A stretch of DNA of 64,000 nt, from assembly GCA_905178155.1 (NCBI GenBank), contig CAJINV010000011.1, forward strand, positions 431,914 through 495,913, read 5' to 3'. This stretch comes from Amoebophrya sp. A120. Its lineage: Eukaryota > Protista > Dinoflagellata. Below are positions 1 to 63,936 of the stretch, piece by piece. The position numbers were made by a program, and so were the translations under genes. The notes beneath the pieces are model-generated. The model was not told the DNA's origin. It searched no databases and saw only the letters and a list, made by a program, of their open reading frames with translations. Numbering within the stretch: the first letter of the stretch is position 1; each line of letters opens with the position of its first letter.

Positions 1-3000
1 CTTGGGCGCCGTGGACACAGGACCTGCTGTTTTGCGGTTGCTGATCCCGGGTTGTTCATCGCGCATGCGGTTCGGCAGGTGCTGTCGAAGATGAACTTCT
101 GTTGATGTTCCACTTGCAGCTTGTTTTTCCTGCGGTTCCGGAGAGGTAGCAGAATCCTGGTTCTTTTCAGAGAGACGGAGCTTGACCTGAATGAAGAATA
201 AATGTTTTCATGTTCTTGTTGTACACACACACACACACACACATGCTTGACGACCGGAAAAAGAACTATATAAATCTGCTCAATTTGGTACAAATTTCTA
301 CCTGTTCCCAGAGCTTCAAAAAGTCCCTCCGATTCGCGCTCATGTCGTTGCAAAACCCCTCGGGGAGCAACGCCTGTCCGCGGTCGTGCGCCGAACCGAA
401 CGAAAGTTCTGCCTCAAACGCTACCTCGTGCATGAACTCTTGCTGCTCGCGCGTCTCCTGCTCCTGAATCCAGCGGCTGACCTCCGCGTCCCAAGAAGAA
501 GTGAAGGGAAGAGCTGGAGTATGGCGTCCTCCTCTGTGCGTGCCAGGGTCGTGGTGGTCTACTTCCGCCCACACATCCTTTTCGTACGCCTTGTCCACGT
601 CATTGGCTATCCAGTGGAGTTGGAGCTTGTGTGAAAGGCGGCGTAGTAGCTCCGGGGCGTCGACTTCGGCAACATCGGGTTTATGATTTTTCGGTTTGTT
701 CGTGACATCATCGCCTTCGGAGGTTTCCGCAGCTCCGTTAGTGTCCGTGTCGGCCTCTTTCGTATAATCCTCGGACTCTCTTTCTGCAGTTCTTTCACTG
801 TCACCTTCCGAGCAGGTCGGAGATGAGGCCCCCGACGAGGATGGCAAAAGCCGCTCTGCTTGCCTTCCGCCCGGCTCGTTCCGGGATAAAGTTCCTTCGG
901 TTCTTCCGCAACTGCGATCCCGAAAATCGCCTTCTTCTTTCTGTGAACCATCGGATTCTTGCTCAAAAAAGTTGTTCGAACAGTACTTTTTCACGAGCCG
1001 CAGAATTTCTTTTTTTGTCCACTCCAGATCCGCTTGCGCCTCCATTGCACACCCGAATAGGTCATCTTCCTCTAGTGCATCTACTCCCGCAGAAGTCGCA
1101 TTTTCGACAAGCTTCGTGCCGTAAATCGGGTTTTGCAGGAGTAGAGGGAGGTAACTGCGCTCGTTATCAAATGTAAAAATGTCTGGGTCTGGAAGAATGC
1201 AGATTTTTGTCATGCTGTTTTTGCATGACACAAAGTGTCTGTCATGGAAGCCCTAGCATCACAGATTTCGAGAAGCTTCCGCATTGCTTAATCCGCATGA
1301 CAAATCCCCCATTTTGGTGACAGGAAGTGGGCGCCTTTTGCTGCCTATGCATGAGAGATTTGGCTGTGTTGTGAAATGCGTTTGCCAAGTTCGCATCCTT
1401 CCAGACCCAGACATTTTTACATTTGATACTCGTCCAGGTTGTCCAATTGCAGAAAGTCCGGACATTGATGCTCCGCTGAAAAATCCCCGTTTTGTCGAAG
1501 TAGATCATCTCGATCTCCGGTTCCGATCGTGTTGTTGCTTTTCAAGAAAGCTGCAGCATTTTTCGTGGACAATAATTCTCCAGGTCGCGTCGCGCTGGAT
1601 AATTTCCGCGTGCCACTACCCGGCGAGCGCGCGGATCTTGTTGTCTTGATTGACTTAGTACTGCTAGCCGAAGTAGGGGACAGCTTCTTGAACTCCTTTT
1701 CCGCGCACATTGCCGCTTTCAAAACCACGTTTTCTAAATCAACACCGTTCTTTTCCATGTCGCCCTGCCAGTAAGTGGACAGCCGAGGCGCTAAATGGCT
1801 GATGAAAAGTTCCTCGAACCGCGGACTTGATGACTTCGGGGTGGTAGAGTCGTTTTGATGTTGCCCGCAAGTATTCGTGGTGCTGCTGGGAGACAGATTC
1901 AGATGTCTACTACTCCTACTACTCCCCCCGCCCGGCGTTCGCTGCGCCACGAACTCCCGCCAGGCCTTATTGAGAGGAAAAATCCACCCTCCCCATATTG
2001 AAAAAGTATGTCTCCGGAAATTTGTGCTGCTGATTTGAGGCCACAAATCTCATCTGTCTTGCCAGAAGACAGGGACAGAAGCTTCCGCCATATTATAGAG
2101 GCGATTTGTCATGCCGTTGGGCCTAAAGGGAGGCCGTTTGCCATGCTGAGCAACTAGACCCATACGCCCCCAGCTTGCCTGCGGATCTGGCCGCCATGCC
2201 TTTCTGCAACACAAATCTGATTTGTGTATCCAAATCCAGCATCAGAAGTTTCGTTTTGATTATGGGGAGGGGGGATTTTTCCTTTTGATAGGCCTGCATC
2301 GAGGCCTTGTTGAAGTCCGCCTGCTGGTTATTCTGTGTAAAAACGTCCCCACCCCAGAGTTGTCATGCAGATTTGCCATGACAGGAACATTTGTGATGCG
2401 CAACCCCATGACAGGCATTTTCAATCGTGTTTGGGAACTTGTAATGCTGTAAACAAGATCAGAAGGTCGATTTGTGATGCGGCTTTCTTTGCTAACTTGC
2501 ACTACCTTACGGACTGAAACTTGTCATGCGTGACTCCCAAAACTCCTAGGCTTGTGTTGCAAAATCCCCATCCTGACTCTGGTGTGGGTACGTTTTTACT
2601 CAGGATACTGGTCTGCTTTGGGCACCTCGGGTCGGTCGCAGCCGCTAAACACGTACTGGTGGGGCAGTTGCCCTTCCCGAATGGACTTTTTCATGCCCTG
2701 ATCGCGATGGGGGTTCAGCCGCCCGATCCCCTTGTAGGCGGGGCTGCAAAACTCATCGATCAAAGACCGGATTTTTTCGCGGAACGGCCCCGGTTGCTGC
2801 GAAATCTTGCTCCAGTCAATGTCGTGCGCCGTCCTGCCAATCATGCTGCGGTAGGTCTTCAAATTATTCCCCACGCCCTGATACTGCTCCATCTTCGCGA
2901 CCCGTTCTTTGCGCAGCTCGAGTTCGATTTCCTCGGTTCGCTCCGTATCAATTGCAAAAGTATCGTACTCGTACTAGTTGCAATCATGCATATACAAATC

Positions 3001-6000
3001 TGCTTCCTAACGTAAATCTGCATTACCAATTTCATTTGTCATGCTACTCAAATTTGTCATGCGATTTCTACTAGTACGATACTTTTGCAATGCATACTCC
3101 GCCACCTGCTGCAAAATCCCCGCCACACACCGGTACCGCTTCAGCGCAATCACCCACTCCACCTGCTCATGCACCCCCGTCAGCATCCGCCGGTCCGCCC
3201 AGGGGCTCATCCCGTAGGAGAGCAGTTCGAACAGCGGGGCGAGCCGGGTCACCACCAGATCTGAGCTATAACGCCCCAAAGATGGACGACCAACTTCTGT
3301 CGTTGTGCTACCATTCAACAAGCGCCTGTGTTCTTCTTCTTGCAGCTCCTGCCACTTGTATCCCCTCTGCCCGAAGTGGAAGGTGTGCTCGAAGCCTTTT
3401 AACGCATTGGGGTAGTTGAACCGCAACGTCTTCGCATCCACGACTTTTCCGCTCACGGCACCCAGCCAGCGTGCGCGACGCGAACTTTTCGGCACGGAAC
3501 GGAGGATGGGGAGGATCGCCGCGGGAATTAGAGTTTTGTCAGCGCCTCCTCCCAGGTGATCGGAATAAATGGAGTTGCATTCGTAACGCCTCAAGCGCCG
3601 TAACGCCCGACGGGATTCCTCTTGCTCAAAAAGGGATAAAGACAGGATGGGATCTGTTGTTGTAGTACCATCGTGCTGTCCACCGCTTGACAGTGCTCCG
3701 AAATTCATCTCGCTCGGCGCTGGTGGATGTTCCTCGCCCGTGTATTTTTCCCCTGCGAGAAACTGTTCATAGAAATCCAAAAGGACATTGACGTAGTCCG
3801 CCGCGTCCACCGGACCCGACTGGCCCTGGAGTGGCTTGTGCTCCGCTGCACAGTGCTGCAAGGCGACAACCGACAAAGCTTCTGTGCGAAAATCTTTCTT
3901 CCTGCTTTCGTCCGGCACAGTTGTACAATCAATTCCCGCTACAGAAACAGAAGTACTACAACTTCGACAGGATGCCAGGACCGACAGCAAATACTCGGTT
4001 TCTCGCAGCACCCGTTGGTGTAATCCCCGCTGCGTCGTGTGGAGCTTTTCGTAAAAATCTGGGAGGGAGGAGTGGAGCGCTGCATCGGCCGAAAACTTTA
4101 CCTCGATGGGGTTTAACTCCAGCAACTGTGCGATGGCGTCAAGAACTTGTGGGAGCGTGAAGTCTCGTGGTCCGGGAGAAGAAGTAGAAGCTTCTGTAGT
4201 TTTCACGACGGTAGTAGTCGTTGTTCCCTGCTGCTTTGCGAGTTCTTGCAGTAGTACCCCTACCGCCTCTGAAGATGTGTGGTCGTTTTTAGTCGTCGTG
4301 TCCGCTGCTTCTTCTTCTTCTTCATCGCATTGTCTCTCTGCAGCATCGCCTTCGACTTTTCCGAGAGGTGATATCATGCCAATTTCATCTCCCACTTCTG
4401 CCACATCAGAAAACGGCGCAGACGTTGAACTGCGGTAACGAAGAACCAAAGTCTTCAGATACAGTTCGCAAAGCTTTGCTGCCTCGGCCTCCTTTCCGAG
4501 CAAAGACGCCTCTTCTACAGCTGCGTTTAGGACTTTGGGACGACGACGACGATTGTAAGCTGTTGAAACGCTAGTTTTAGTACCTTCGTCTTCTGAAGGA
4601 TTGCCATCAGCCTTTTCCAGGTTATTGTGGTCGCTGAGCTCCTCTTCAACTTCTTCTTCTTCCTCCTCCTCCACAATTTTCGCCAGCTTATTGTAGGGCA
4701 GGAACTCGCCAGGTATGTAGGGCAAGAACTCCGGCATGAAGAGATCAGATTCGAGCCCCCCTGGCGGAGCCCGACCCGGGAGGAATTGGATAACACCATC
4801 GGAGGAGGACTCCTGCTCGCTCGATGTTGCTCGGCTCGAGTTCTTATTTTCATCACTCCGATTAATCTTTTCTACGGAGGTTTCCTCGGAGTCGCTTGTG
4901 TCAGAACTGTCTGAGGAAGAGGACGAACTGGAAGAGGCAGATGAGGAGGTCGAGGACTGCATAGACGAAGAAGAAAATTCGCTGGAACTACAAGAAGACC
5001 TCGATGCCGACCTGGCTGCACTCCGGCCAGAAGACCTCGTTGACCCGCTAGACGTTCTTGTGCTGCTGCCAAAAGAACCCGAGGATCCACTGGAAGCCTC
5101 GCTCGACGATGACCCTTCAGAAAACCATGTCGGAGATTCCTCGGAAGACGACCTCCGACGACGTTCTTGTGCTGCACCAGTAGATGATATTTTCGTCGCT
5201 AACAACTTATTCAAAGGTTGCATTTTCGCAGACGCCCGCCGCGCACTCCTCTCTAAAGACTCCTTCGACAAGAAAGCCGGCATTCCTGCAGAACACTGAC
5301 GGCCCCGCTGTTCTGCTTCTTCTTCCGTGGACGAGGAACTACTTCTAGTGCACAACTTGGAAGGCATCGAAGACGAGCGTCGCGCTCTGGAGGAGATCTT
5401 CTTCTTCGACGACAATGGCGCGAATTTTGCTGCAGCTTTCATCCTCGAAGAAGCTGGCTTGGAGGAACTACTGGACGAGCTGTGAGCCCTGGAAGCAGAC
5501 GACGACGAGGACCTAGGTGAAATTCCGTCCCTGACAGACACCGCGTTTTCCGAGAATGAATCCGAAGTCACACCATGCTCGCCGACCAGGTTTTTAACAT
5601 CGGGACGACGGTCCGCTTTTTGTTCTCTGCTGCAGCTCTCCGAGGAATAATTTTTCCTGTATTTCTGTTGCTTCCGGTGCGCCAGTTTGAGGAGCAGGTT
5701 GAAGTTGGACAGAATCTCGTGGAAGTGTGCCTCGATTTCGCTTGCTAGATTCGCGCGCACCTCTTGGTCCTGGAAAATCAGCTGGTCCCGCAACGCCTCC
5801 AATGCAGTGTCATGGTATGGCGTGATCCTAGTCATTTCCGTTGACATTTTTATGCTGGGTGAACAATTCGGTGCTGCAGGTCCAGGTGGACCAGGGAGGA
5901 CTTCTGCAGCCGGAGGTTCACGCTCACCTTGTAGTTCTTGCGAGTCCTGATCGACTCTAAGCGGTTGTTGATCTTGATCTCTGTCGGTACTGCTATCCTC

Positions 6001-9000: not shown

Positions 9001-12000
9001 TAGCCGTCGCGGATTTTCGGTTTCTTTTCGCGCATCTGGCGCTCTTTCCGCGCCTGCAAAGCGTCTGGGTCAAGTGTGTTCTTGCTGCGCTGGCACGCCA
9101 AATGGTAGTCGCCGAGCATCGTGAAACGGTTTCCGCAGTCCGCCGGCCAGCGCGGGTCGCCGTAGGAAAGCGGCGAGGTCGACTGCGACGACAAGACTCC
9201 CTTGCGGCCCAGCCCCACCATGGTAATCAGGGAAATCTTCGGTGCCAGCCGCACAAAGGTGTCGAGAAAACCCTTCATGTCCGGCTTTTCAAATTCGTCT
9301 TCCAGCTCGGGGTATCCAAATGCATAATATGTCTGGGGCTGCGTGAGTTCACATGTTTCGTTCCATGCGGTTTTTACATGTTGACCCAAAAGCTGCTGCC
9401 CTGGAATGCAAGTACTAGCACGCTACAGGTTTCATCGAGAAGGTCCCTCAATGTTGCGTATCCCGCTGCACGATGAATCTCTCACCTTAATGGCAAGACT
9501 TGGTCTACTTTTATTCCTGTCCACGCATGACAAATTTGTCTTTGTGTGTGATGTGAAATGCGCATCACAAGTTCGCGATCTTCCTGACCCAGACATGTTT
9601 GCGGTAAATACGTGGTCCCGCGGTGCGGGTACTTCGAAGTCGCGCCAGAATGGGTCCTATCAAATGCAAAAATGTCTGGGTCTGGAATATTGCTGGGGTT
9701 GTCATGCATAATTTGCATGACCGAGAATGTCCGTAATGCACGACCTAGCATCACAGATCTTTCCTAGAGGGCTTCCTGATGCCTACTCCGCATGACAAAT
9801 GCCCTCCCCGCGTAGCACAAACTAGACTCCTCTTGCTGGTCATGCAATACAGATTTTTTTAGAGTCCAAAGTTAGCATCACAAGTTCCAACCTTTCAGAC
9901 CCAGACATTTTTGCATTTGATAGGTCCGGCACGAAGGGATCCGGGCGTTTGTCGTACGTTCCCGGATGGTGGTACCACTTTTGCAGATGCGAATGCTCGT
10001 CGTGCAAGTACTGTCGCCAGCTCCCGTCGCGCCGGTCCACCGCTTCGAGTTGCGCCTCTCTCTTGCCCTGGACCACCATTGCGACGACCTGGTGGATGAT
10101 CATTTTTGCCATTTTCTTGAAGTCTTTCTTCAACTGCTTCTTCTTGAAAAACACCTTCCCCTGCTCGTAAATCTTCGCGATCTGGTCTTCAAAGTCGGGC
10201 TGCTTATCGCCGAGCAGTGCTTTTTGCGAGTCGAACATTTCGCCGAGCAAGCGCTGCAGCTCCTCTTCAGAGATTTCCTCGGGCTCCGAATAAAAACCAC
10301 TGTCGCAGCTGCTGTTGTCCGTACCATCGTCGTCAGACGACCAATTTGTTCTGTAAAAGTCTGCCGCGTGATGTTGCTGCTGCTGTAGTAGAGAGAACGT
10401 CGTAGCAGATCCTGAATTGTGTTTGACAACTGCTTCTGTCGGTCCGGATTTGTTTTCGCTTTCTCCAGCACCATCGGAACAAGTATCACTTTCAGAATCA
10501 CTACTGTCCTCTTCTGATAACGAATCCAGCACTTCTCTTTCCGGTGTCAGCCGCAGTTCCGCACCGCAAACGCGCGCGAGGTACTTTCGCATCGAGAATT
10601 TCGCCAGCACTTTCGCGAGCTTCTGCTGCGTCCACTTGTCTCGGTACAGTTCCACCCGGCTTCGCGGCAAGAGCTTGTCCACCTTCCGAAAGACGGAGTA
10701 GTCGATCCACCAATCTTGCACCCAATTCACGGCCAATTGCTCCTCGTTGTTTCCAACATCAGAGCTGTCGATGGAGTTCCAGTCGCTGCAGCGCCGCGGG
10801 TTGTCGGGATCTTCAGGTTCTTTTAGGGAATGTTGACTGGGGTCGTCCTCCAGGTAGTAGTCTTCGGAAGAGGAAGATGTAGAGAACAGGGATGAAACAT
10901 CTTCCCGTGCCAATCCATTTTTTGCCCAAGAAGCTAGTTCTTCGCTTGAAGAAGTAGGTGCGGAGGCGCCGCTGGATGAAAAAGATCCGGTGGACGATGA
11001 TCTGCCGCGGGTGTTGGTGGGGCGACGACGTAGAGATGATGACGTTCTTCCACATGAAGATTGAGAGCGTCGTCCTCCTGTACTGTTGGACGAAGTCATT
11101 TGTTGTTCCGAAGAAGAGGTGGAACTGCACGACCGCGAAGATGTTGTCCTCTTGCTGCTCATGTAGTTCTTACTTCTCCTTCGCCCCCGTTCGCCCACTC
11201 GTTGGCCGTGTTGGTAAAACCCATGCTTTTCCCTCCGCGCTTCTTCCATTTTCTCCCGTTCCGCCCGTTCCATCGCTTTCTCCCCTTCCCAACAGGTTTT
11301 CGCAGCCATGGACATCTGTTTCCGTCTCCCTTCCCGGAGTACTAGCCGCTTCAGGGGTTGGTAAGCCATCGTGCATTTTTGCATTTCAGACTTCATCCTC
11401 GCGAGAGTTTGTTGTACGTTTTTAGGGAGGTAGCGCATAGGAAGTAGATACGCGCACGGGTGAAAGAAGGGCAGCGCCGCGCCGACTTCCGTATTGTTGT
11501 GTCCTGCAAGTCGTGGTCTTTCAACTACCCCGGTGAAAATTTCTACCCCACACTGGTCTTTCAGTTGCTCGAGGAAATTTCCCAGTTCGAGCTGTTTCTG
11601 GTGCAGACGCATGAAGTTCTTCCAGTCTAAAACGTGGACTTTTTTCCGGACCGCGTGCGGCACTTTTTCCGCCAGGCCGACGCGAAACTGCTCGTTCGTA
11701 ATCGCATACCGCCAACACTGCTGCGACCGGAGATAGACCTGTTGCTTGGCGTCCTCAAGCTCGAGGGAATATGCGTGGCGCTGGAACACCTTGTCGCTAG
11801 TATAACGTCGGTAGAACCAGCACCCGTTCCTGTGCACGTACTGCAGAAGTGCTTTGACTAGCGCGGTCGCATTGCAGACAGAGGGGTCGGGTGTACGGGG
11901 AAAGCGAGGAGGACCTGTTGTAAAAAGTTGACTTGATCAGAAATGGGTCTATCCTCAAATGGCAACCCAAGGACGAACTTCATCGACCCACTTTATGCGA

Positions 12001-13249: not shown

Positions 13250-13930
13250 CGCCGGGGCGGAGGTAGTGAGGTCGTGGGCGTTTTCTTGCCGGCCGTCGCC
13301 TTGGCCGCGGCTTTGCTTTTTCTTGGCTCGCCATACCGCCGTGAGTAACGTTAGGCCGCACGGTATGGCGGCCGCTTGATAAACGTCGCAAATTTTGGCA
13401 AATTACCGAAATTCCTTTCCGAAGGCCAGCCCCCATGCTATGGGGCCGATCCAGGTGCCACGGGGGGCGCCCAAAAAGCGAAGAAAAATCGGGCCCATAG
13501 CATGCCGATTGGCTTCGCGCGTCTGGGGTGCTTTTTCTTTTTCGCGTTTTTATTTTTCACGCCAGCGCTTTCACAAAGCTTCCCAGGCTCTGAAACCGGC
13601 GAAAAGGCCGCCGCTTTCGCGGCCGCCAAAAATGCTCCGAAATCGCGGCCGTGCCATGCTGTTTCGCTGTTCTGATTTTGGGCGCGTTTTTTGCGCGCCC
13701 CTTTTTGGGCGCCCCAAATCGCCAGAAACCAAGGCGGTGGGCGCCTCAGAAGGGCGCCCCTTTTGCCGGCTCCCCTGCGTCGTTTTATCAAGTGCGAATC
13801 GATAGTTTTCGACCGGGCTTGTTTGCCGCAAACGCCCCGGCCGCTTGATAAGTGAAAACTTTTTATGCTCAAAAACACTTCCGGCCGCTTGAAAACTGCC
13901 GGTCGTTTTGCTGTCTGGCTGGCAAAAAAA
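13250..13930. other. GC-rich non-coding island (GC blocks alternating with A/T runs)
   Basis: Clear composition shift with many CGGCCG/GGCGCC palindromes. No credible protein in any frame. Confidence 0.5.
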
Positions 13931-13960
13931 CTCCCTGATTAGAACCGTTCGGTGACCTCA

Positions 13961-20627: not shown

Positions 20628-21160
20628 CTTTCTTACTTTGGACAAAGCAAAACTTGTGTGAAGTTGTGCTGCACTTGTTCTCTCTTCTGTACACGCGTGC
20701 TGCTGATGTCGGGAAAACAAGTAAAACTAGAAACCGACAGATTGGTATAGCGCCGTTGTAACAGCGAAAAATTTGAAAAAGTGCTCGTTTTCCTTTACAG
20801 TTCGAGACGAATCACGGCGGCACGCTCGATTTTTTGTCTATTAAATTGACATGAAAAATACTACCTTGCGTGCGCTCGTCACAGTCGCAAAATTTTGAAA
20901 AAAAAGCGAGCATACTGTCGTGTTTCGTGACGAACTCGAAAGAAACTAACAACGAAATATGTGTTTCAAATGATTTTCGAATACCGAGGGTACGGTGGAA
21001 ATGCGTGCTTGGAAATACATCACGATGGTGTGCTTCAAATTGAAAAAAACTATGATTTTGTCAAAACTATGATTTTTAATTTTCCGACAATTTACAGACA
21101 CGACGAAACAAATTTCGCAGTTTCCACGCACGGCTATTTTCACGAACTAAAAAAGTGATA

Positions 21161-21300
21161 TATGCGCTGTCGCTTTTTCTCTCAGTACTAGTTGCATTTG
21201 CGTTCGACGAAGTTTCGCGTTGTACCACTGGGCTCCTCCACCTAAAGCTTAAACACTTTTCAGACAGCTCCCAGCGGGCGGTCCCGCGACGTGGGCCAAG
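21161..21300. repeat. Dispersed non-coding repeat, copy 1 (others about 30737-30793 and 31350-31493)
   Basis: Shared CAGTACTAGTTGCATTTGCGTTCGACGAAGTT...TTGTACYACTGGGC...AAACACTTTWCAGACA. Confidence 0.75.
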
Positions 21301-50914: not shown

Positions 50915-53900
50915 TCAGCTGAACCTGAGCCCCAGCACGGCCCGTGGCGGCGGACCACCGCCAGATTTGTTTCTGGGAAACACGTCGCCGAGATAGGCGG
51001 ACGGAACGATGTCTGTGCCGTCGGGGTGCTGGAGGTTGAGCCGCTCGGCCGCGGTGCCGGGTAGGCGGTTCTCGAAAAGCAGCAACAATTCGAACACCGT
51101 GGACAGCTCGTTGCACTCCACGCGTTCCGAGAGATTGTTGGGAAAAAACGAACTGGAAATGCTCAGAACCACCGTTTGGGCTTGCGTCGTCGAGCTCCCC
51201 TCGGGTCGTGAAGCTCTACTACTTGTTCTACTACTGCCTATCGCTTCTATTCGGGCTTTCAACCGGTTCTCTATCGCCTCCTGCTGTGTCGGCGGTATGT
51301 TATTCCGCTGCTCCACTATGCGGATGAGTTGCACTGTGGTTTTTGGCGTCACGTACAGGTCGCGCAATGTTCGAGTGTCGCCTTCCGCCATGCATTTCCC
51401 ATCGATCAGCAGCAGCTCCGTGCGCTCGGCGGCCTGTTATGGGTTGAGTGATGGTATGTGTCTATTCGTCTTTGTTTCATCAGAGGACAAAATTGTGTAG
51501 AAGAACTGACGTTGTGTAGTGCAAATAAATTATGGATTGAAATGTTGAACATTAGCATGACGTGCTGCCCACAACACTTATCGTGCAGCACATGCACAGG
51601 TCTCTACAAAAATAAACCCTATCTATACCTCCTCCGCCACCGACCCGCTGCTACTTGCTATCCTGTGCAAAAGTATCGTACCCGTTCGTAGTAATTGCAA
51701 TCATGCATTACAAATCTTTTCCTTAAGGCAAATCCCCATTACAAATTTAATTTCTCATGCTGAGGAAATTTGTAATGCATTTATACGAGTACGATGCTTT
51801 TGCGGTTCATACTTGCTCGGGAAAGGCAATGTTTCCGCAAAATTTCCCGGAGCTCTGACACCGTCTGGTCGTGCGCAACCTGCATCCTATGCATTGCAAA
51901 AATATCGTACTAGTTCTAGTATGAATTGCATCACAAATTTTTTCAGAAGGAAAAACGGAACTTGTCATGCTGAATTACCTCTAGAAATCACATCTGTCAT
52001 GCAAGTCTTGCATTTATACGAGTACGATGCTTTTGCAATGCATACATCCGGGCCGAGTACAACTTTTCTTGTGTGGAAGCTGTTCCACTGTTTGATGTCC
52101 CTCGTCTATTTGGCGATAAACTGCTGCTGTTCGTCGCACCAATACCAAAATTCGTTTCCCTGAACGGCTCAAACAGTTTCGCCTTTTTCGCGGCTTCCAA
52201 CTTGGTCTGGAACCGATTTGGCGAGTTCACGATGCGCGACACCTGCTCGTTGACTGCGACCGTCGGCGTGGGTGTGAAAGTAGTCTTTGGGGAAGATGGG
52301 TTGGAAGGCGTGGCCCCACCTATTGGGGGTAGGGAGAACGAAGATGTAGTTGTACTGGAAGAGGTTGTTGTAGCGGTCGTTTTGAGTAGCGGAAACGGGA
52401 GTTCCACGTTGACCGGAAACACGTCCTTGTAGTCGAGCCAAAAAACCCGAACGGGACTGGAACCCGTCCCAGAAAACACGTTGCCTGCGATCGTCACGTC
52501 AGACCTGGTCGGTGTAGAAGTTAGAGAGGCATTTTCACAACAGAGTCCGCAATAATTCGCCTCTAATGCTTGCCAAACAAAAAAAAAAAGCTCGATGAAT
52601 TAAAGCGAAGGAGCAAGCATTTCTGTATACCCTTCCTGCCCGCCCTCCTCTTTCCTCTGCAACAACTCCGGCGCCAAAGGGATGTAGGACGCCACCGTGC
52701 GGCTATCCTGCCAAGGCAGCTCGTCCGACGCGGAAAAAAGGTCGAACCGCCGCCCCAAAAACATGTCCCGGTAGACATAGAACAGGCCGTTTTTGAAGTC
52801 CGCCACCGTCGTATCCGAAAACACCGCCATTTTCTGCACCTGCGCGACGCTGCTGGATTTGGAAGAGGATGAAAATGGCGCCACTACGCTCGGCAGCATC
52901 ACGTCGCGGAACGGCACGTAGACGATTTTCCGCGTTTTGCTCAAGGGCTCGATGCTTAGCAAGTACCGTCTCGCAAGCTCGTCGCGCTCTGCCGGAGAAA
53001 CGGAGAAGTCAACTGCGGCCGGGCGCTGATGTTCTTGACCCCTATTAGTACCCGCGGTACTAGGAGATGATGCTGAAAACCCTCCCTGAGACGCCATTTT
53101 CAAGCTGCTTCTATTGGGAGAGAGCGCGAGAAACACCCCCCGCTCCTCTTCCTCCCTCATTCTCTGCTGCCGCGCTTTTTCTCTCGTTGCTTCCGCATCG
53201 GAAAAGGGAAACCAAAAACAGGCCCCGTTGAACAGTTCCGCATACAGTTCCTTCGTGCGCGCCTGCCGCGTGCTCACGGGGAGCGTAAACTGCACCTGCT
53301 TTACGGAGGGGAGCTGTTTCAGAACTACATTCGAGGAAGTAGATGCAGGAGGTCTTCCCGGAAGATCTTCTGGTGGTCCACAAATACCTCCTAGAAGTTC
53401 TACTGCTGGCGTTCGTAATATTGTTTCCCTTTGTTCCGTGGTGCCTGCATCTGCCAGAACCTGGAACAGTTTTTTCTGCAGCCTTTTCTTCCGTTTCCGA
53501 ACGTCCTCCGGCGCGAATTTCCGCCTCTCTTTCGCGGGCGGCACTGCAAACGAGCTCCGCCCGCTGCTGCGGATCGACGAGCTGGCGCCCAGCCGGTCCG
53601 AAAACGCGCTTTTTCGGGATTATCAACTGTAAAAATGTCTGGGTCTGGAAGGTTGCAACTTGTCATGCTGTTTTTGGACTCTAAAAAAATTTGTAATGCA
53701 TGACCAGCAAGAGGGGCGCAATTTGTGCTACACGGACAGGGCATTTCTCATGCGGAAGGTGCATCAGGAAGCCCTCTAAAAGTCTGCAATGCTGGGTCAT
53801 GCATTACAGGCATCCTGGGTCATGAGAAATATGCATCACAAAGCTTGCATTCTTCCAGACCCAGACATTTTTGCATTTGATAGGGATCCCGTCAACCCGA

Positions 53901-56900
53901 ATCCGGACGACGCCGAGGAACTGCAACTGCTACCGGTTGTATATCAAATGCAAAAGTGTCTGGGTCTGGAAGAATGCAACTTGTCATGCTAAATCTGAAC
54001 CAGGCGAAAACCTGTGTTGCATGATTGCCAAAAGCTGTGCACTTTTGACCTAATCGAGAGGCAGTTTCTTATGCAGCTTAGGCATTAGAAAGGTCCCGCA
54101 GAATGTGTCATGCTATGTCATGCATACCAAACCTCATGGGTCATGGAAAACCTGCATGACAAATCTCGCAATCTTCCAGACCCAGACATTTTTGCAATGC
54201 ATATTGCACCTTCATGAACTAACTTCCGGGCCCTCTGCAGCGCTTCCTGCTGCGCGGTAATCAGCGCAGCCATTGCGGACCGGAGATCCGACCGCTTTTC
54301 CTCCAGATCCCGCTGGGCGCTCACCTCGGCGCGCAGCCCGGACAGCGGTTTATGCAAAAGCAAATTGCAAAAGTTGTACTACCGTAGGGATAGGTACTCG
54401 TACAAATTTTTGCACAGTCAGTCTATCTTCATGACAGATGACAAATTCTCTTTTTCCTTGTTCAGTTTGCAATGCAGGAATTCCTACATTAGTACGGTAG
54501 CGGTACTACTTTTGCAGAATTGCATACTCTTCCAGTTCTAGCAATTCCAGTTCCGCTGACCGCAAGGTCGTTCGAGCACTGTATCCTTTGTAAAAACGTC
54601 CCCAAGAAACGAGTTACGCAAACATTTGTAATGCGCATCCCCGTGAGTGTGAGAGGAATTTCCAATCGTGCTTTGGGAGAATTTGTAATGCTTTAAACAG
54701 GATAAGGAGACGCATTCGTTATGCGGGATCCCTTGCAAGACTAGGACTACACGACACTACAGCGAAAATAAACTTGTCATGCGTGACTCCCAAAACTTCT
54801 GAACCTGTGCTGCAGCTGTTCCCAAATCGACTGTAGCGCGCGGACGTTTTTACGCAGGATACGCGGCGGATCTCGCCGTCTACCGAGAGCTCCTCTTCGG
54901 GCGGTTCCTGCCGATCCTCGGACAGTTCGCCGAGTCGCAACCGCATCTGAATCACCAGCTCGTCCACGGTCAACCGGTCTGGGTTTTTCGCCAGCAGCGC
55001 CTCCTTCAACGCGACCAAGTCGAGCGGCGTCGGCGCCGCGCGTCCCTCCACGGACGGCGGGCCCGAGCGGGAACTGACTTTCTTCATCTTGTCGGCTGCG
55101 GTGGTGTCCAGGTTGCCTTCTACGGCTGCGTCGCTTGCCGCGGTAGTGGTGCCACCTCCGATCTTCGTCGGCAAGGACTTCGCACTGCGCGCGCTCTTTT
55201 CGCTCAACACGTCCGACTTGTCTTGTTTGTTATCGTTAGTACCATCGTGGTCCGCTGCGGCTTTGTCCCCTGTATCAGCCCCGCCCTCAGTAGTAGGTTC
55301 TTCTCCTTTCGCATCCGCATCACCGTCGTTGGGTTCATTTTCTTTATCCGCAGCAGTATTCTCTTCTTCTGGTTTCTTCTCTTCCTCCGGGGCCGCGGCT
55401 TCTTCTGGTTTCTTCTCTTCTTCACCAGCGGCTCCTTCTACCGCGTCCGGAGCGGCTTTTTCGACATTATTTTCATGTATTTTATTCGTCTCACCAGCGT
55501 TTACATCCTCGTCTTTATTTCCGTCCTCTCCGGCCACTGCTGCATCTTCGCCCGGTGCAGACGCGACGCTCTTCGCCGCAGTATCTGCCGTGTTGCCTTC
55601 CTCCTATGCATTGCAAATATGTCTGGGTCTGGAAGGTTGGAACTTGTAATGCTAGCTTTCCATACCTAGGAAACCTGTATTGCATAACCAACAAAGGTCG
55701 CAACCTCTTTTGTACATGCAAACATGCAGTCTGTCATGCGGATTGCCTGTGAGAACAAAACGTTCTGGAAAGTTGTCATGCTAGGTTGCATTCGGATCGG
55801 TTTCCACCATCCACATTTTAGCATCACAAGTTTCCAGACCCAGACATTTTTGCAGTTGATACCTCCGCAGGAGCTGCAACTTCCGACTTCATCGGGGCTT
55901 GCAGCGACGCCGACGCGCTCCCCGTTGTTCCTGAAAGGCCGCCGTCTGCAGCTGCTTCTTCAGGTACGTCGTCCAGCAGTCTGGTTGCCGCTTGTTCTAT
56001 CCCAGCTGGTGCCGTGGCTTCTGGTGCCGGCTCGGCTGTTTAGGAGTTCATCAGGAGAATTCGATTTGGACATTAATTCTTTTTATGTTTCCTTTTATTC
56101 CGCCCGAAAAGTGAACTGATCGGCGCGAGAATAAATCTGTGTGTCAACAGTCTATCAAAAGACCTTCTGTGCTGCTCTCGACGTCGATGAGGATGAATAA
56201 AACGCAAACTCAATAACTCATGAAAAAAAAAAGCCCTCAGGTCCCTCTATACCTTCCAAATACGCTTTTGCAACACCCGTGACAAACGCGGCGTAGTCTT
56301 CCGCAGAGCTCAAATGCAGTCTCCACAAGTCCTCCACGTTGGGCTTCGGCAGCGCCAAGTCTGGTTCCTCCAATTTCAGCACCAGAAACTTCACGTAGTC
56401 CTCAAAATCCTGTTCTGTGTCACCGTCGTCGCGGCTGTAGACCCGCTTATATAAATCCAGCAGCTCCTCCGGACGTGGAATGTTTGTCATCAAACTGTAG
56501 AAATTCACCACCATTTTCTTCAGCGTTGGGTCTTCCTCCTCGGATAGAAACTCGGGAGGAGGCTTTTTCAAGAAAGGAGCATTCGGGTCAACTTCTCCCG
56601 CAGAAATACCCCCTTTAGCGGACGAGGACGAAGAGGCGCTGCTACCGGTCGTGCCCTCACCTAGGTAGTTTTTTTTTCGCAGGATAGCTTCTCGTTTTTT
56701 GTAATAAATGTTGAAAGTGAGAAGTACAGGCAAGAACATATTTTTACGAGTTGCGATAGCAAGGAGACCTTGACAAAGAAACGTGAATCAGAGTCAATCG
56801 AACGAAGCTGTCCAGAAAAAAAAAATTATCCAACCTGCCGTGCTGGATTTGGAATTGCTACTGCTGCTACTTTTCGATGACCCGGATATGGCAGTGCACA

Positions 56901-57231
56901 ACCCCCCCTGCTCCCCCTCACTTGTATAGCACGAACGGCAATACACGCATGAGCAAGAGTGTCGGTTTTGCATGACAAATTTGCACTGGATTGTAGTGCT
57001 ACTTGGGCTACTAGAACTCGTAATGCAAACAGTGCCAAGAGGCAAAGGGTGGATTGGGTATTTTGCGTGACAAATGAGGCGGAGGGGGGAGTTGTGAACT
57101 CTCATACCGGAAGAAGCGCTGCTTGAACCGGACGAAGATGCGGAATCATTGTCCGACTCACCTCCACTCCGAGCGGGCGGCGCCTCTGCCTCCGCGGGCG
57201 GTGCAGGGGGCTCCTCGTTGTTCTCACTCAT
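50915..57231 (-). CDS. Hypothetical protein with acidic region, coiled coil and 2-3 ubiquitin-like domains (about 1,265 aa, 13 exons)
   Basis: Joined via 8 introners and GT-AG introns 56661-56834, 56036-56252, 52505-52630 and 51434-51628; 3798 nt open. UBL-like QVAHDQTVSELR...LLIDGKCMAEGDTRTLRDLYVTPKTTVQL and DTTVADFK...DSRTVASY. Confidence 0.6.
51659..51811. mobile_element. Introner F4
   Basis: TIR, direct repeat CTTGC. Confidence 0.9.
51888..52044. mobile_element. Introner F4
   Basis: TIR, direct repeat CATCC. Junction ARM|QVA. Confidence 0.9.
52505..52630 (-). other. Predicted canonical GT-AG intron
   Basis: GG|GTATAC ... CTCTAAC (branch-like) ... ACCAG|G, phase 2. Confidence 0.6.
53621..53882. 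mobile_element. Introner F1
   Basis: TIR, direct repeat GGGAT. Junction TGS|RKS. Confidence 0.92.
53942..54203. mobile_element. Introner F1
   Basis: TIR, direct repeat TTGTA/TTGCA. Confidence 0.9.
54351..54526. mobile_element. Introner, F4-like and degenerate
   Basis: Eroded TIR (TGCAAAAGTWGTAC..TACCGTA), direct repeat CGGTT/CTCTT. Junction LEE|LSG. Confidence 0.75.
54582..54861. mobile_element. Introner F3
   Basis: TIR, direct repeat CACTG/CGCGG. Junction IRR|ART. Confidence 0.82.
55605..55861. mobile_element. Introner F1 (can also be read as GT-AG)
   Basis: TIR, direct repeat CCTCC. Junction PAE|EGN. Confidence 0.92.
56887..57106. mobile_element. Introner F7, reverse orientation relative to 28970-29205
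   Basis: TIR, direct repeat CCGGA. Junction SSG|SSK. Confidence 0.88.
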
Positions 57232-58382
57232 ACTGATGCTGTGCTGGTTTTGATTCGTCGTTCTTGCAGTGCCTTTTTATCAAACAGGCTGCACAACGGA
57301 CGTCCTGCTCACCGCGGTCATATCAGGATACGTACGACCAGAATAGTAAATGCTGGGGCTATCACTATGTAGAACGCCGGCCACTCTCGCGGCGGATTGA
57401 AAGCAGAAACAAAAGTAATGATAAGAAAGTAGTTGTGAAAGTGGTCCTGCTTCAATAGCATCTTCACAAATAAATCACCCGACAACAGCACCTCATCCAT
57501 CTCGCTCACGACTCTCTCCACCAACTTCTCTCGTAGCAGATCGTCTTCGCATTATCTTCCAGTTTGCCAAAAACAATCCGACTCCGATGATACTGAAAAC
57601 GCGAAAATCCGAATCTTTCGAAGTTTGGAAAAGGACTCCACTTCTTCTTCGTCGCTACAGGTCTTATCAAGCCGCAATGCAGCTGAGCCATTTGCATTTT
57701 TTACAAGAAGTGTTGCGAACACGACAAACACAAACGGCGTGCGCTTATTTTTTACGACGGAACAAATTGATGTTCAGTGCTGGTGGCGAAACATTGGGCC
57801 CCAGTGCTGGTGATAGGTGCACAAACTAACATGATTTAAATGCTGGTGAGATGACCCAACATAAGACAAAATAAATTATTTGAAAGTGATTCAGACCACT
57901 CAATTACTTATGCATTTCATCCACTCGGATAATCCATCGACCCTGACAAGGTACGAGATGAAGCTACCGTATCAGTGGTAAATCTAAGTAGAACTCAACC
58001 AAATTCGTTTTGTCAGACAAAAAGGGTACTAGTTTTCGAGTTTATGCAAAAAGTAAAAGCAATACTTATATCAGATCATTGAAAGTCCTAGAACTAGTGG
58101 TTCATTTTTTAGCAAAATTTGTTTCAAATCAGACATGCAACAGGGCTGCATTCACGAAGCTACAGCTCGTGCAAAAATTTTTATGCTCATTTAAAAATAA
58201 GTTCACTGTATTCCCGACAAAAAAAATACTTATGAAATAAATTTGGTGCATTCAATATATATAGACCCGGGAAAGGTAGAAATTGCCCGAAAATACTGAA
58301 ATCGTGAAGCACTTTATCACTCCCCGCGTACCCTTACCCGAAACCACTCCAGCGATACCCTTACCCGAAACCACTCCAGGGT

Positions 58383-58486
58383 TTCCCGGTTTCCCGGCTT
58401 CCCGGTTTCCCGGCTTCCCGGCTTCCCGGTTTCCCGGCTTCCCGGCTTCCCGGCTTCCCGGCTTCCCGGCTTCCCGGCTTCCCGGT
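58383..58486. repeat. Tandem 8-mer array (TTCCCGGY)x13
   Basis: Directly visible. Preceded by two copies of TACCCTTACCCGAAACCACTCCAG. Confidence 0.9.
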
Positions 58487-58545
58487 TCTTTTCGCTGTAG
58501 CTGACGCCGACACTGTAGCTGACGCCGGTCGTTTAGCTGAGCACG

Positions 58546-60112
58546 CCGGTTTCTTCTTTAGCGGAAGCCGGTTTTTTAGCTGAAGCCGATTTTTTAGCTG
58601 AAGCCGGCTTGTTAGCTAAACCCGGCTTGTTAGCTAGACCCGGCTTGTTAGCTCGAGCCGTTCCTTTAGCTAAAACCGGTTTTGTAGAGCTGCCGCAGTT
58701 GTTTCAGGCGCGCCAGCCAGTCTAGCTGCTGAAGCTGCAGCACGGGGGCCCCGCCGCGCCTCCTTTGGGCTCTGCGGCCGCTGGGCTTTTCCATGGAGCT
58801 GCTGGCCTCTCGGTTGCCCTAGCAGTTCTAGGACAGAAAAACAGCCGCCGCAATAAAGAGAAAGGCGGAACAGCTTCCCGAGTCTGTTCGCACATAGAGA
58901 AAGGCGGCGCGAACGCCCTCCCGCTCTAGGCACGCAAATTCTACGCCGAGGCCTCCCGGCAAGTCAGCGCCTTCGCTTCCAAGCTTGCTCGCTTCCCAGC
59001 CTGTCTGCCTCCTGGCTTTTTCGTTTTCGCTTCTCCGTTTTTAGCCTTTGGCCCTCCAAGCCCCCAAGCCCCCCACCTTCCCAGCAAGCCTGTCCACCTC
59101 CCAGCCTGTCGGCCTCCCAGCTTCGTTCCCGGCTCTTTTAGCTAAGACCGGTTTTCTAGCTAAAGCCCAAGCCGGCTTTTTAGCTGAAGCCGGTTTGTTA
59201 GCCGCGGCCGGTTTCTTTTTTAGCGGAAGCCGGTTTTTTAGCTGAAGCCGATTTTTTAGCTAAAGCCGGTTTTTTACCCAAAGCCGGCTTGTTAGCTAAA
59301 CCCGGCTCGTTAGCTCCACCCGCCTTGTTAACTAAAGCCGGTCCTTTAACTACCTACAGCCGGTTTTGTAGCTACCCCGGGCTTTTCCTGCCTGCTCCGC
59401 TTACTTATCGAGCTGCCACAGCTGTTTCAGGCGCGCCAGCCAATCTGCCTGCTGAAGCTGCGAAGCTGCAGCAACGGGGCCCCGCCGCGCCTCCTTTGGG
59501 CTCTGCGGCCGCCGGACTTTTCCATGGAGCTGCTGGCCTCTCGGTTGCCTTAGCAGTTCTATGACAGAAAAACAGCCGCCGCAACAAAGAGAAACGCGGA
59601 ACAGCTTCCGGAATCTGTTCGCACATAGAGAGGGAGGCGGCGCGAACGCCCTCCAGCTCTAGGCAAAAGCGACGCCGAGGCCTCTCAGCAAGTCAGCGCC
59701 TTCGCTTCCAGGCTTGCTCGCTTTCGTTTCCCCGCCTTCCCAGGTTTTCAGCCTTCCCGGCTTCTCCAGTTTGCCCAACCTTTCGAACCTCATTCGCCTT
59801 TTGAGCTTCTCAGCCCCCTCAGCCGCCCCAGTCTTTCTTACAGGCTTCCCTAGCCCTCCCAGTTCTCGCAGTCTGTTCAGTTTTTCCCGCCTTTTTCGTC
59901 TTTCCACTCTTTCCCGTCTCTATCTTCCTTGTCCCGAAGGTCTGGCCTCCCCGCCTCGTTGTGTTCCGCCGTTTGCCTCGTCGCTTCTGCGTGGTTTTCA
60001 AACTGTTCGCAGATAGAGAAACAGGCCCCGCAACAGACACAAGAAAACACGGGAGAAAATGGCCGCCGGAATCTGTTCGCACATAGAGAAGGAGGCGGCG
60101 CGAACGCCCTCC
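58546..60112. repeat. Composite repeat: about 19-20-bp GCCGGTTTTTTAGCTGAA-type arrays plus a duplicated block of about 310 bp
   Basis: 58688-58994 matches 59410-59723. 58546-58635 matches 59208-59307. A third partial copy lies at about 60067-60112. Confidence 0.85.
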
Positions 60113-61362
60113 CGATCTTTCTACGCAAAAGCTCCGGCCAAGCTTCCGAGAAAGTCCCGCCGCGGAAAATATGAAGCGCGCCATGATCTTCAAACGCGCA
60201 TAGTTCTCAAAATAAACGCACAAGCAAAGATCCACAAAACGGCCCACACCTGCGGAAAAATAAGATCGGCAGCCAGCGGCTTGCCAAGTTAAATGCCGCT
60301 CCATAGCCAGAATTATCCGCAAGAGCTCCGCAAATATATAATTTGGCCAAGAGCAGAGCGGCCGCGTCTCGAATCTCATCGAAACAACCAGGACCCCAGT
60401 GGCTACCTGAAACTGACTAGCTGACACACCCGCACCCTTCCCCCCCGTCCTTTCCTTCTAGTTCTGCTTCCCCCCTCCCAGTGCTCTCGATTTCGCTTCG
60501 GGATAGAGATTCCTTCCCCCTGGCTAGTAAGGAAAAACGTATCAACATTCGATACGGTGGATAAAAATAAAATTCTTATCAAGCCAGTTTCTACTTAATA
60601 GCGCGAATCAAGACTCGCGAGGAGGTGGAGCTGCCGACCATATAAAAATTGGCTTTCCGGGGTCTACTTCGTGTACGGGAATGGGCACGGACGCTTGTAG
60701 CGAGTTTTCTCTGTCCTAGCCTTGACCCTAAGATTATGTGGTAAAAGAAAGAAGTTTACTCAACGACTGCAGCAGCCGCGGAACTTCACATTTTCTCCGA
60801 ATGAGGGGAAAAAGGCAATAAAATTCAATTACATCTAGATTTATTCGGCAACACTTTCATCTTGTGAAAAAACCGGAATAGAAGTACTTCTACGGGGTGG
60901 AGATTTGGATTTAGCTTGTGCAAGTAAGTAGATGGAGTTTTTTGCGCTTGTTGTAGGAAGTTGTGGTGTGATGTGCACTTTCTTCTTCGGTAGTGTTAGA
61001 ATTGGTACTTTTGCTTGATTGGAAGATTGCTTGGTTAGTTACGGTATACACTGTAGTTTCTTCTGAAAACTTTGATTTTCGTTTTCCTTTCAGGGACTGT
61101 CACACACATCAAAAGCTCTTGTTTCAACAAATAGAGTAATACTATTTAGAAGTCCTTTTGCATTTTCTTAAAATTCTTCAAAATCTTTTTACTCGGCCTA
61201 GCGAAAACCTGGTTTGCATCAACCCAGGCACTTACTTAAAGTCGGTACTACTAGAGAGTTGCCTTCAACATAGCGACAAATTGCACCAAGGTGCGGCGGC
61301 CGGCGCGCTGGGGAATAAATTGCTGATCCCCTGCTTCATCCTTTGTTCTATATCTGTGTGGC

Positions 61363-63936
61363 TCATGCGGTTAGCCCGAGCCTCAGCAAGGCCTCCTGGT
61401 CCTTTTGCCGGTCTTCGTCCGTGTACCCAAATAGCGGTGGGTCATCGAGTCGCCTTTGCATATCCATTGCAAAAGTATCGCACTCGTGCTAATGCAATCG
61501 CAGCTGCGCATTACAAATCAGGTTGTCACGGTAAAAAAATCCGCACTACAAATTGAATTTGTAATGCTGAGCCGATTTGTACTTTGCAATTTATGATGGT
61601 GGTGCGATACTTTTGCAATGCATATTGCAGTTCGCTCTGCAACCTCCGTCGCTGGATAATTTTGCAGGGACCCGCCGAGCACATGTTGGACAAGGAGTTC
61701 TGCCGGCTTCGCGACTTGTTGTCAAAATTGTCGTTATCCTCGTCGGACGTGCTGATCTGGTCGAGAAAGTCGTCGTGGTCTTGCGGGTAGAGTAGTCCTC
61801 TCGTACTTAACATGGAAGGAGGATTCAAATCAAGCCCCGCCCCTTGTTGTGCACCTGCTCGTGGCGGCTTTTTTATATCGTCCCAGCGCACGGACTTCTT
61901 AGTGCTCGACGTAGTCCCTCCACCTGCGACCAAATCTACTTCCTGTGATGCCGGAAAGAAGGCGGAGCCACCTCCTGCGTAATTCGTCTTGCTGCCCAAC
62001 CTTGACCCGGCTGCGGAGACCGAAACTGATGCCGTGGTTGATGCTGCGGTAGAGGCTAAACTCTCTTCCGAAAAGGAACTGCCAATCACGCGCGGCGACG
62101 CACCAGGATGACCAGCTGCTCCTGCTCTCGGAAATGAACCGAAGCCAGACCTGCTCTTGCTCGGGAGGGATCTGGAAAAAGCTCCGCCGGATATCCAACA
62201 AAAAAAGATTGTAGGTGTAACTTTTTTGGCGGATCAGCATTACAAGCCTGGCTGGCATGAGAGCAGAAACCTGTCATGCGCAGATAGCAGGCCAAAACGC
62301 GCGTGAACGGACCCTGCAATGCATATCCAGCATGACAGACGCAATCATCCTACGTGTTGCGCATCACAAACTTACAGCTAACAATGTTTTTTTCCTGCAT
62401 ATCGGAGTTGTGACCACCGCCATTATTGCTGTCGTTGGAATTCCTTCTCCCGAACGAGCCACTGTTCCCACCACCAGAAGAACCTCCACCGAAGGACCCC
62501 GATCCACCTCCGAAGGAGCCGTTTGCCGACCCTGGCCCTCCTGGTCCGCCGCCCCCGCTCATGGGGTCGTCTGGGTCCGAAGAATCGGTCCTTCTCCGGG
62601 GTGGTTGCTTTTCTTTCTCCTCCGCTACCGTGGTGACCCCGAAGTTCTTATACGCCTCCGGCGTGGGAAATATCCGCCGGTCGATGATTTTGTAGCAGGT
62701 AACCTCCTGCGAGTCCGTGTGGTCCACGTCCACCGGGTAGCTGGCCAGGCGAGGCCCAAAGTTGCGCTCGAACAGCAGCTTCAAGGCCTTCCCACCGAGT
62801 TTTACCTCCATCGAGGAGTCGCACTTCAGCCACGAGCGACCTGAGGTGTATTGGTCGTTGTGATTTTTGATTTTCAAAATGAACAGGTGAATATCTTCTA
62901 CTAGCAGAAGTGCTCGGCTGAGATCCTTTGTGTTGTACCGCTACGTTGTACCAGCACGGCGAATTATCCCGCGCTATAATAAAACCAAGTCCATGTTCAG
63001 TACCGAGCTTCGTATCTTTACTGCCCATGGATCGCACCCGGCTGTCTTCCGACTTCAGCCCGTTCCGCTGTCTCGGCGAGGCCAGCACGCCAGTACCTTT
63101 CGACAGCAAATCCCGCAGTTGGTCCTCCTGCAGAGTCCGGTGGGCAAAGCTCTCCGTCACCTGCATTTTGGTTGCCGACGGAAAGACGCCGATGCTCATC
63201 GCCCGCACATTCCGGTGCTGGCGCGACTGTGCTAGCTTTTCCAGCTTCACGCGGCGCCAGTACCGCGCGTCGTTCTGATGTGCCGCTTTTGCTTTATTTT
63301 CCTGTCTATGAAATGCAAAAGCATCCTATCGTACTCGTATAAATGCATTACAAATTTACTCAGCATGTGAAATATAATTTGTCATGCTGATTTGCCTTGG
63401 GAACAAGATTTGTAATGCAAGACTTGCATTTATACGAGTACGATACTTTTGCACAGGATACTGTCCGGTGGCCGCGGCCACGGCGCGGTCGGCCCCGCCA
63501 GTCGTCTCTAGAGTCTGGGAAGATGCCATATGGTATTGAAAAACCTCCCCACCTTATACTGTAGTTGTAATGCAACTCTGCATGCTGAAAATCTTTCTCA
63601 TGCGGAGCCCCATGAGAAGCATTTTACAGCTGCGCTCTGGAATTTGCCATGCTCCAATCAGCATGATGTGCGAGATCTGTGATGCTACAGGGCTAACTCA
63701 AACAGGACTACTCTACGTGTCCAAACTTGTCATGCAAAACAGCCAAAACTCGTGGATTTGTCTAGCCGATTCCCCATCTTGACTATGGAGTGGGGACGTT
63801 TTTACATAGGATATGCCAGCGCCTTGCCGTAGCTGTCCTCAACTTCGACGGTCAGAAAGTCCCCGACCTTCAGCCTGGCTCCCTCCTGATACGCCACCTC
63901 ACGGGGCAGGCTATCGGTGTGATGCTGATGAATACC
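61363..63936 (-). CDS. Hypothetical protein, 3' part (5' exons beyond the right edge)
   Basis: Exons join via 4 introners (ALA|SSQ, TGQ|ENK, NSD|GAF, ELQ|RRL) to the stop at 61363. One frame change near 62880-62950 is unresolved. Confidence 0.6.
61461..61624. mobile_element. Introner F4
   Basis: TIR, direct repeat TTGCA. Confidence 0.9.
62192..62401. mobile_element. Introner F5
   Basis: TIR, direct repeat CCGGA/TCGGA. Confidence 0.82.
63307..63460. mobile_element. Introner F4
   Basis: TIR, direct repeat CTGTC. Confidence 0.9.
63529..63813. mobile_element. Introner F3
   Basis: TIR, direct repeat TGCCA. Confidence 0.87.

Follow-up and report, generated by a model that had tools for sequence, protein, structure and literature searches.

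The introners of the dinoflagellate Amoebophrya sp. A120 are non-canonical introns that carry terminal inverted repeats (TIRs) and direct repeats of 3–5 nt, average ~240 nt in length and lie in one-directional gene blocks; in the text of Farhat et al. (2021; PMC7789003), their ends are given as TAT, then seven bases of lower conservation and then a minimum of three A. In 41 of the 58 A120 rows of Gozashti et al. (2025; PMC12130899), most families are classed as TIR DNA elements of unknown superfamily, with listed lengths of 107–320 bp; these rows include a family 38 of ~810 bp, described as “5-bp TSD, TA/TA Termini” (TSD, target-site duplication) and bearing long terminal repeat (LTR)-integrase-like homology. 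The texts of both papers raise the question as to how Amoebophrya introners, in their tens of thousands, spread with no transposase identified and are spliced without GT-AG borders. This question is addressed here in a 64,000-nt stretch of the A120 genome (the window; assembly GCA_905178155.1, contig CAJINV010000011.1, positions 431,914 to 495,913 of the forward strand), where elements of this kind carry an internal motif, GCAT[GCT]ACAA, repeated with recurring spacings across families whose interiors do not align. The array probably provides double-stranded-DNA binding sites for one protein common to all families.

Several short protein-binding sites gathered within one element are a feature of the subterminal repeat arrays of CACTA and hAT elements and of the Mu enhancer; these systems, like the Tn7-like elements, are bacterial or plant, have known proteins and play no intron role, unlike the elements considered here. 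Tn7-like ends hold several TnsB sites at helical pitch together with a site for IHF, a host bending factor (PMC10201428, in part), and the resemblance lies in several short phased sites within ends and in a host bending protein common to elements with different ends. In the A120 elements, however, the sites extend from one side of the element to the other, and families with different end cores have the array in common; the comparison is one of analogy and not of membership. In terms of termini, IS3EU/GingerRoot and IS481EU elements display TA..TA or TNT..AYA ends and short inverted repeats, with target duplications that are usually 6 bp for IS3EU and about 4, 15 or 25 bp for IS481EU (PMC10045372, in part). 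The elements of the window do have TA..TA termini, but their duplication is exactly 5 bp instead of the usual 6, and membership in IS3EU/GingerRoot was not assigned.

TAT-ended elements and their removal as introns

The window contains a compact block of eukaryotic genes, and its long open reading frames (ORFs) with a Pfam match (about ten, of those tested) are all on the minus strand. A caller that made no use of the motif returned 42 rows in the window, compared with 2, 4 and 1 in shuffled windows. Thirty-one rows with TAT-type ends were kept, in a selection by eye with the motif list already known to the selector; the 11 rows dropped comprise two that span two adjacent elements and nine with weak or TTT-type ends. 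Three degenerate copies (9313–9610, 24245–24518 and 47200–47509) were added afterwards, bringing the set to 34 elements and 68 ends. The elements are TAT…ATA inverted-repeat inserts with arms of ~25–35 bp; the direct repeat that flanks strong arm pairs, themselves chosen without any duplication requirement, is exactly 5 bp long, and it is exact in 27 of the 31 elements. They are short, non-coding, present in both orientations and bounded by inverted ends and a constant target duplication, in the manner of miniature inverted-repeat transposable elements, and probably constitute non-autonomous TIR DNA transposons. No target-site sequence preference or hidden GT/AG was seen in 153 sites, Rfam returned no match in the window, and the viral contigs searched hold no match to the end pattern.

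TAT stands at 66 of the 68 ends and TAT[CG] at 62, while AAA occupies positions 11–13 in 60 and AAAA occurs within positions 10–16 in just 46. End positions 4–10 are unlike between the two ends of one element in 29 of 34 cases, as the original prediction, made from the letters of the window, had it; its example at 15487–15747 indeed reads TATGGATTG at one end and TATCAACTG at the other. Six end-core groups (A to F) can be distinguished among the 31 elements, the degenerate copy at 47200 having a seventh core. These elements match the published A120 introners in their TAT + 7 + AAA ends, TIRs, short direct repeats of the 3–5 nt class, removal without GT-AG and repeated, dispersed families (PMC7789003, text), and the terminal signature is already in print; they differ in that the direct repeat is a constant 5 bp and in that some families have no A-run. 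Likewise, the TIR DNA families in the 41 rows of PMC12130899 have listed lengths of 107–320 bp that match those of the families here, and family 38 has a 5-bp duplication with TA/TA termini, whereas no element of ~810 bp with LTR-element protein homology was present in the 163 loci described below.

Within these ends, positions 4–10 change two to three times faster than interior spacers between close relatives, in the window and the loci alike, and alternate among a few recurring alleles, which suggests an end-specific mutation process or an exchange of ends. One common allele, TATGCATTGCAAAA, found in the window at 19594, 51888 and 55605, for example, is a one-mismatch copy of the motif starting from position 4. 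Over positions 4–7, likeness between the two ends of one element (0.563) does not exceed that between ends taken from different elements (0.574), and over positions 8–30 it is slightly greater within one element (z ~5). At end positions 10 and 14 of family 0, the minor letter is shared by both arms about twice as often as expected (32 vs 16.3 and 43 vs 22.5, respectively); subfamily structure or homogenisation of the arms could account for this.

The elements are introns, removed without GT-AG ends from contigs that are likely RNA. Ten of the 14 elements in 14801–31200 are skipped by exactly their length plus 5 in contigs of X3 and/or X6, two samples of one study guessed, not recorded, to be RNA; the other four were not among the matches listed. 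One 4.5-kb contig skips seven elements in succession with almost no other differences. Of the sequence words of one stretch, made up of elements to 24.5%, X3 and X6 contain a fraction of 0.62–0.68 and X1 and X2 one of 0.85–0.86, which fits RNA versus DNA. At the joint of the single element read for the cut position, the one starting at 28630, the 5′ cut falls at the TAT end or one base earlier and the 3′ cut 4–5 bases past the ATA end. The raw RNA runs X9 and X10 contributed 72 and 7 reads, respectively, each of them partial and falling on repeats, and gave no junction, strand or level. At most sites, excising the element with one repeat restores long minus-strand frames, which 1–2 extra bases usually destroy. 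On the minus strand of 21266–29990, element removal yields a 1,650-aa ORF with glycosyltransferase domains, and two more skipped elements lie at or beyond its end.

The internal motif and its spacing

The exact 9-mer GCAT[GCT]ACAA occurs 70 times in the 7,514 bp of the 31 elements, at least once in 30 of them, and five times elsewhere in the window; dinucleotide shuffles of the elements (300 in all) give a mean of 0.68 matches and a maximum of 4. Four of the five outside matches fall in the degenerate copies, and with these included the count becomes 74 in 8,396 bp against a single match in the remaining 55,604 bp, where 1.27 are expected. Nine candidate ordinary introns, picked by eye, contain no motif. 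The motif is thus repeated inside the elements and rare outside them, as originally proposed, and the enrichment analysis suggested at that time places it well above background. Its fuller consensus is W-GCAT[GCT]ACA-RR-TTT, with position 5 occupied by G in 611, C in 308, T in 203 and A in 12 of 1,134 sites; as a matter of speculation, an A at this position would create an ATA/TAT terminal triplet and may be avoided as a cryptic end.

An independent set was obtained by scanning for the family A end pattern, which over-represents this family by design and retrieved 163 loci, all from one assembly. The loci have no exon sequence in common with the window except one 43-bp match, and their element copies are at most 97% identical to those of the window. 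They hold 390 non-redundant elements (95 kb) with 806 motif matches, and the 9-mer occurs at 8.45 per kb inside elements compared with 0.71 per kb outside; of the 323 outside matches, 122 fall close to the edge of a locus, 80 are bracketed by end-like signatures and 121 have no explanation. Together with the 31 elements of the window, these 421 elements form 13 families of at least three members, plus 27 elements in smaller groups, and the motif is present in all 13 families, in 33–100% of the copies of each. Family 5, which is the CACAAC type of the window, and family 7 have AAA within positions 10–16 at 0 of 30 and 0 of 24 ends, respectively, and carry the motif all the same; the common part is therefore TAT[CG] plus motif and not the A-run. 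Of the terminal signature first proposed for nearly all ends, TAT[CG] stands and the universal A-rich run does not. A match of locus L150 to 23973–24518 was considered as an orthologous locus and rejected, as it consists of two paralogous elements lying side by side.

One locus (L022, 505–1608) contains a TAT…ATA element 1,104 bp long that is flanked by a 5-bp duplication; its interior is repetitive and rich in GC, and its motif sites lie mostly within the first 220 bp. The longer element copies contain no nested elements.

The arrangement of the motif sites follows a spacing grammar, which is the new part of the finding. In every family, the modal outermost site lies 34–63 bp from an end. A same-direction pair of sites 31–33 bp apart is found in 12 of the 13 families (in at least 30% of copies), whereas random skeletons reach at most 6 in 1,000 trials. 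Scanning periods of 6–20 bp over 100 recurrent distance classes from 11 family groups gives a best period of 10.5 bp (p 0.004 against 1,000 random skeletons); the period is 10.4 bp after same-direction multiples of 31.5 are dropped, 10.5 bp with divergent pairs alone and 10.3–10.4 bp in the window alone. The spacing analysis that the original prediction called for thus brings out a pair and a period, and phasing of the kind known from Tn7-like ends is present, more weakly so in simple scans.

This internal DNA code is well supported and apparently undescribed. In PMC7789003, figures apart, the text describes no internal motif, spacing rule or orientation test, and the supplement text does not contain the motif strings; the text of PMC12130899 and 41 of its 58 A120 rows do not mention an internal motif; and the text of the Roy et al. 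preprint does not mention Amoebophrya. A literature search by topic and with five 9-mers as whole words, figures and subscription papers lying outside it, found no description of the motif or its spacing. In practical terms, a strand-neutral, phased motif offers a concrete DNA bait for the mobilising factor and a family-independent way to find these introns.

Descent, strand and the proposed reader of the motif

Two features of the motif, the constraint on its letters and its indifference to strand, bear on what it is for. With motif and ends masked, no profile of the 13 families matches another family at E<1e-3, in a test that leaves the two shortest families with too little sequence to recover even their own members. 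The spacers between paired sites 31–33 bp apart are unlike across families, and within family A the offsets are kept while most spacers no longer align. Private changes in the core letters, expressed relative to the spacer rate, amount from the youngest to the oldest bin to 0.73 (p 0.23), 0.43, 0.35 and 0.36, and no slowing is seen at position 5 in the three older bins; another estimate, which requires the motif to be perfect in one of the copies, lowers the motif rate by about half, and the estimate free of this bias was used. With the motif changing at about a third of the rate of the spacers, neutral decay fails, and the case of alignable families with a neutrally decaying motif, named beforehand as one that would undo the prediction, is not what is found. 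Least probable among the readings considered here is the descent of all families from a single element that had internal sub-repeats, the motif being a passive relic. Common descent as such is plausible: families 4, 6 and 9 have a common motif skeleton and similar ends, and several end cores have C-runs in common. The masked interiors, the unlike spacers, the offsets kept in family A and the slowed core letters all stand against the passive part of this proposal, and descent with constraint collapses into the best explanation. Since families 4, 6 and 9 share skeleton and ends, “unrelated”, the word first applied to the families, was an overstatement; they are better called not alignable, and may have a deep common origin.

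The RNA element of Rbfox proteins is (U)GCAUG, and the motif contains GCAUG when its position 5 is G, which holds for only 54% of sites; unlike that element, it is longer, shows no strand preference, leaves position 5 free and recurs at helical spacing. Where gene strand could be inferred from reading frames (180 of the 421 elements), 372 sites lie on the coding strand and 404 on the antisense strand, with an orientation bias in no family and no enrichment of (U)GCAUG on the transcribed strand, and in ten elements the coding strand carries no site at all. The one-directional arrays of family 2 are all-sense in six copies, all-antisense in four and mixed in one, occurring in both orientations and being unable to pair fully with themselves. 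The element at 22376 is skipped exactly although it has a single motif site in all, and none on the mRNA strand; together with the strand neutrality, this makes an Rbfox-like RNA reader unlikely, and the resemblance noted at the outset is most likely the coincidence it was suspected to be. A splicing factor of this kind, or motif-to-motif RNA pairing, acting on GCAU[GCU]ACAA in the pre-mRNA does find some encouragement in the removal of the elements from likely-RNA contigs, in the presence of at least one near-match on the mRNA strand of nine of the ten skipped elements and in computed RNA folds, where the arms pair and inverted copies are able to do so. However, GCAUG is wholly absent from two skipped elements and UGCAUG occurs in only three of the ten. 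Pairing between motifs and a G-U asymmetry are not supported either: the position-5 letters of outer opposite sites are equal in 103 of 266 pairs compared with 129 when permuted, and arm mismatches are G-U in 165 and A-C in 157 cases. The folding check proposed with the original prediction shows paired arms. Overall, an RNA reader appears highly improbable, and the motif evidence argues against an RNA-sequence splicing code. The reverse motif may resemble the animal Sox-Oct composite site, a likeness that we take to be a coincidence.

The reading that we favour, and hold to be likely though by no means certain on the present sequence analysis, is that the GCAT[GCT]ACA array forms double-stranded-DNA binding sites for one protein common to all families and used in transposition. 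Sites lying on one face of the helix would be bound by the transposase or a host bending factor, and either a transposase or a host chromatin protein may be the reader; the bound sites would bend the 110–320 bp element and bring its TAT ends together for cut-and-paste by an enzyme that is probably a DDE transposase of the integrase-like kind, making 5-bp staggered cuts at TAT. The ends, the duplication length and one published family point to this type of enzyme. If continued multiplication is limited to copies whose array is intact, the motif would be kept while spacers and end cores drift, and splicing would be read from the paired ends and not from the motif. A shared motif of this kind also gives an idea of how numerous end-families could radiate with a single machine. 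The shared trans-acting reader originally proposed is supported by a motif common to 13 unalignable families, a constrained core and a shared spacing, whereas its identification as an RNA-binding splicing factor, one of the three kinds put forward, is disfavoured.

In the main rival reading, a DNA reader would serve splicing. A host DNA-binding protein might read the array on chromatin and, whether or not it also takes part in copying, mark the element so that it is removed as transcription proceeds; strand neutrality and 10.5-bp phasing would suit any DNA reader, the elements function either way round although the target site has no splice signal, the motif is no sparser in copies with mutated duplications, and U1 snRNA as well as a transposase were not found in A120 according to the text of PMC7789003. 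This remains unlikely, albeit worth keeping in view, as constraint is weakest in the youngest copies, which is expected if selection acts on copying lineages, as the element at 22376 is spliced with its single site, and as the literature consulted in part offers no precedent. A version to which we would give just as little credence combines both roles: one host protein reading the phased array on chromatin would license the copying of every family and also tell the transcription machinery where the intron is. If true, introns would be defined on DNA and not on RNA, and exact, orientation-free removal without splice signals would be explained in a lineage reported to lack both U1 and a transposase. 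Finally, the array could position chromatin proteins (nucleosomes or dinoflagellate viral nucleoproteins) or provide intrinsic bending, favouring spread or tolerance with no sequence-specific transposition factor. The period of 10.3–10.5 bp resembles chromatin periodicity, and introners elsewhere have been tied to nucleosome linkers (PMC9860276, in part); on the other hand, a 7-letter core having a single free position, set at a small number of fixed spacings, would look like specific protein recognition and not like diffuse dinucleotide periodicity, and element lengths are not phased, which leaves chromatin positioning improbable.

Several results weigh against binding sites used in transposition. 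Helical phasing of element length (109–383 bp) was tested and rejected (p 0.49). In simple Rayleigh scans of the loci, a period of 15.9 bp ties with 10.5 bp for same-direction pairs and one of 15.8 bp comes first for convergent pairs, and spacings of 18–20 and 39 bp are off-phase. A role in transposition only would, given enough time, predict a lower motif density in older copies, and copies with mutated duplications, presumed older, show 1.23 motifs per 100 bp compared with 1.30 (p 0.31). The family-specific end cores are also constrained, which one shared enzyme alone does not explain. The strand comparison draws on the subset with inferred gene strand, and the families may not be independent; in the computed folds, pairing with another motif copy takes up 39% of motif bases, as inverted copies would bring about by construction. 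The three ORFs of the 1.1-kb element of L022 have no Pfam match, and no autonomous copy turned up in the window or the loci. No transposase was found in A120 by Farhat et al., who speak against a general mobilisation by such an enzyme (PMC7789003, text).

Individual elements and other features of the window

Family A has the end core ATGTCTGGGTCTGG. Its copy at 1165–1428 has the duplication CTCGT and lies in reverse orientation relative to that at 16452–16703; the copy at 15152–15403 has motif offsets of 49, 80, 113, 133, 172 and 212, is at most 97% identical to copies in the fetched loci and has a close relative at 44852–45103. Further copies lie at 9658–9922, 15487–15747 (the one with unlike ends), 53621–53882, 53942–54203 (one mismatch in the duplication) and 55605–55861. 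On the minus strand, the copy at 19594–19850, with one diverged arm, is skipped with 5 extra bases in an X3 contig, those at 22599–22902 and 25671–25891 are skipped exactly, and that at 28630–28921 has unequal duplication copies, ACCCA and ATCCA. The minus-strand copy at 35178–35439 splits a calpain domain, with positions 23–114 of the Pfam PF00648 profile before it and 177–296 after it. As regards the degenerate copies of this family, the one at 9313–9610 has one mismatch in its duplication and two exact motifs, and the one at 24245–24518 (minus strand) is skipped exactly even though its left end, which is the 3′ end, reads TCT for TAT.

Family B, with a C-run core, comprises 1968–2290 (duplication GGCCT) and two minus-strand elements that are skipped exactly, 24820–25202 and 25314–25634, the latter without GCAUG on its mRNA strand. 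Family C is represented by 2329–2607, whose six motif sites run in a single direction with spacings of 31, 48, 33, 49 and 31, by 63529–63813 and by a C-type element at 54582–54861 with two mismatches in its duplication. Elements with the GTATCGTAC core of family D lie at 2946–3096, 30529–30693, 51659–51811, 51888–52044, 61461–61624 and 63307–63460, as well as on the minus strand at 22376–22536, where the mRNA strand of the exactly skipped element discussed above contains neither GCAUNACAA at up to one mismatch nor GCAUG; a candidate decayed D-like element at 54351–54526, with no matching duplication and no exact motif, was excluded from all counts. In family E, the minus-strand element at 23973–24181, skipped exactly, and that at 62192–62401 have equal motif offsets (46, 88, 139, 170) and spacers that are not alignable. 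Family F, with the CACAAC core and no A-run, includes 28970–29205 (minus strand, skipped exactly) and 56887–57106. The degenerate element at 47200–47509, with its distinct end core, has a mismatched duplication and retains one exact motif.

A different repeat lies between two minus-strand ORFs at 13370–13900; it has TTGATAA…TTATCAA inverted ends ~420 bp apart and GGCCGCTTGA[TA]AA repeats, and is without the motif. At 40755–42386, where GC content rises to 74%, two plus-strand ORFs of 543 and 310 aa have no Pfam match. Tandem units of the TTCCCGGCT type occur at 58380–60200 along with a duplicated block of several hundred bases, and a short, similar non-coding stretch was recognised by eye in three places, at ~21185–21270, 30735–30795 and 31372–31460.

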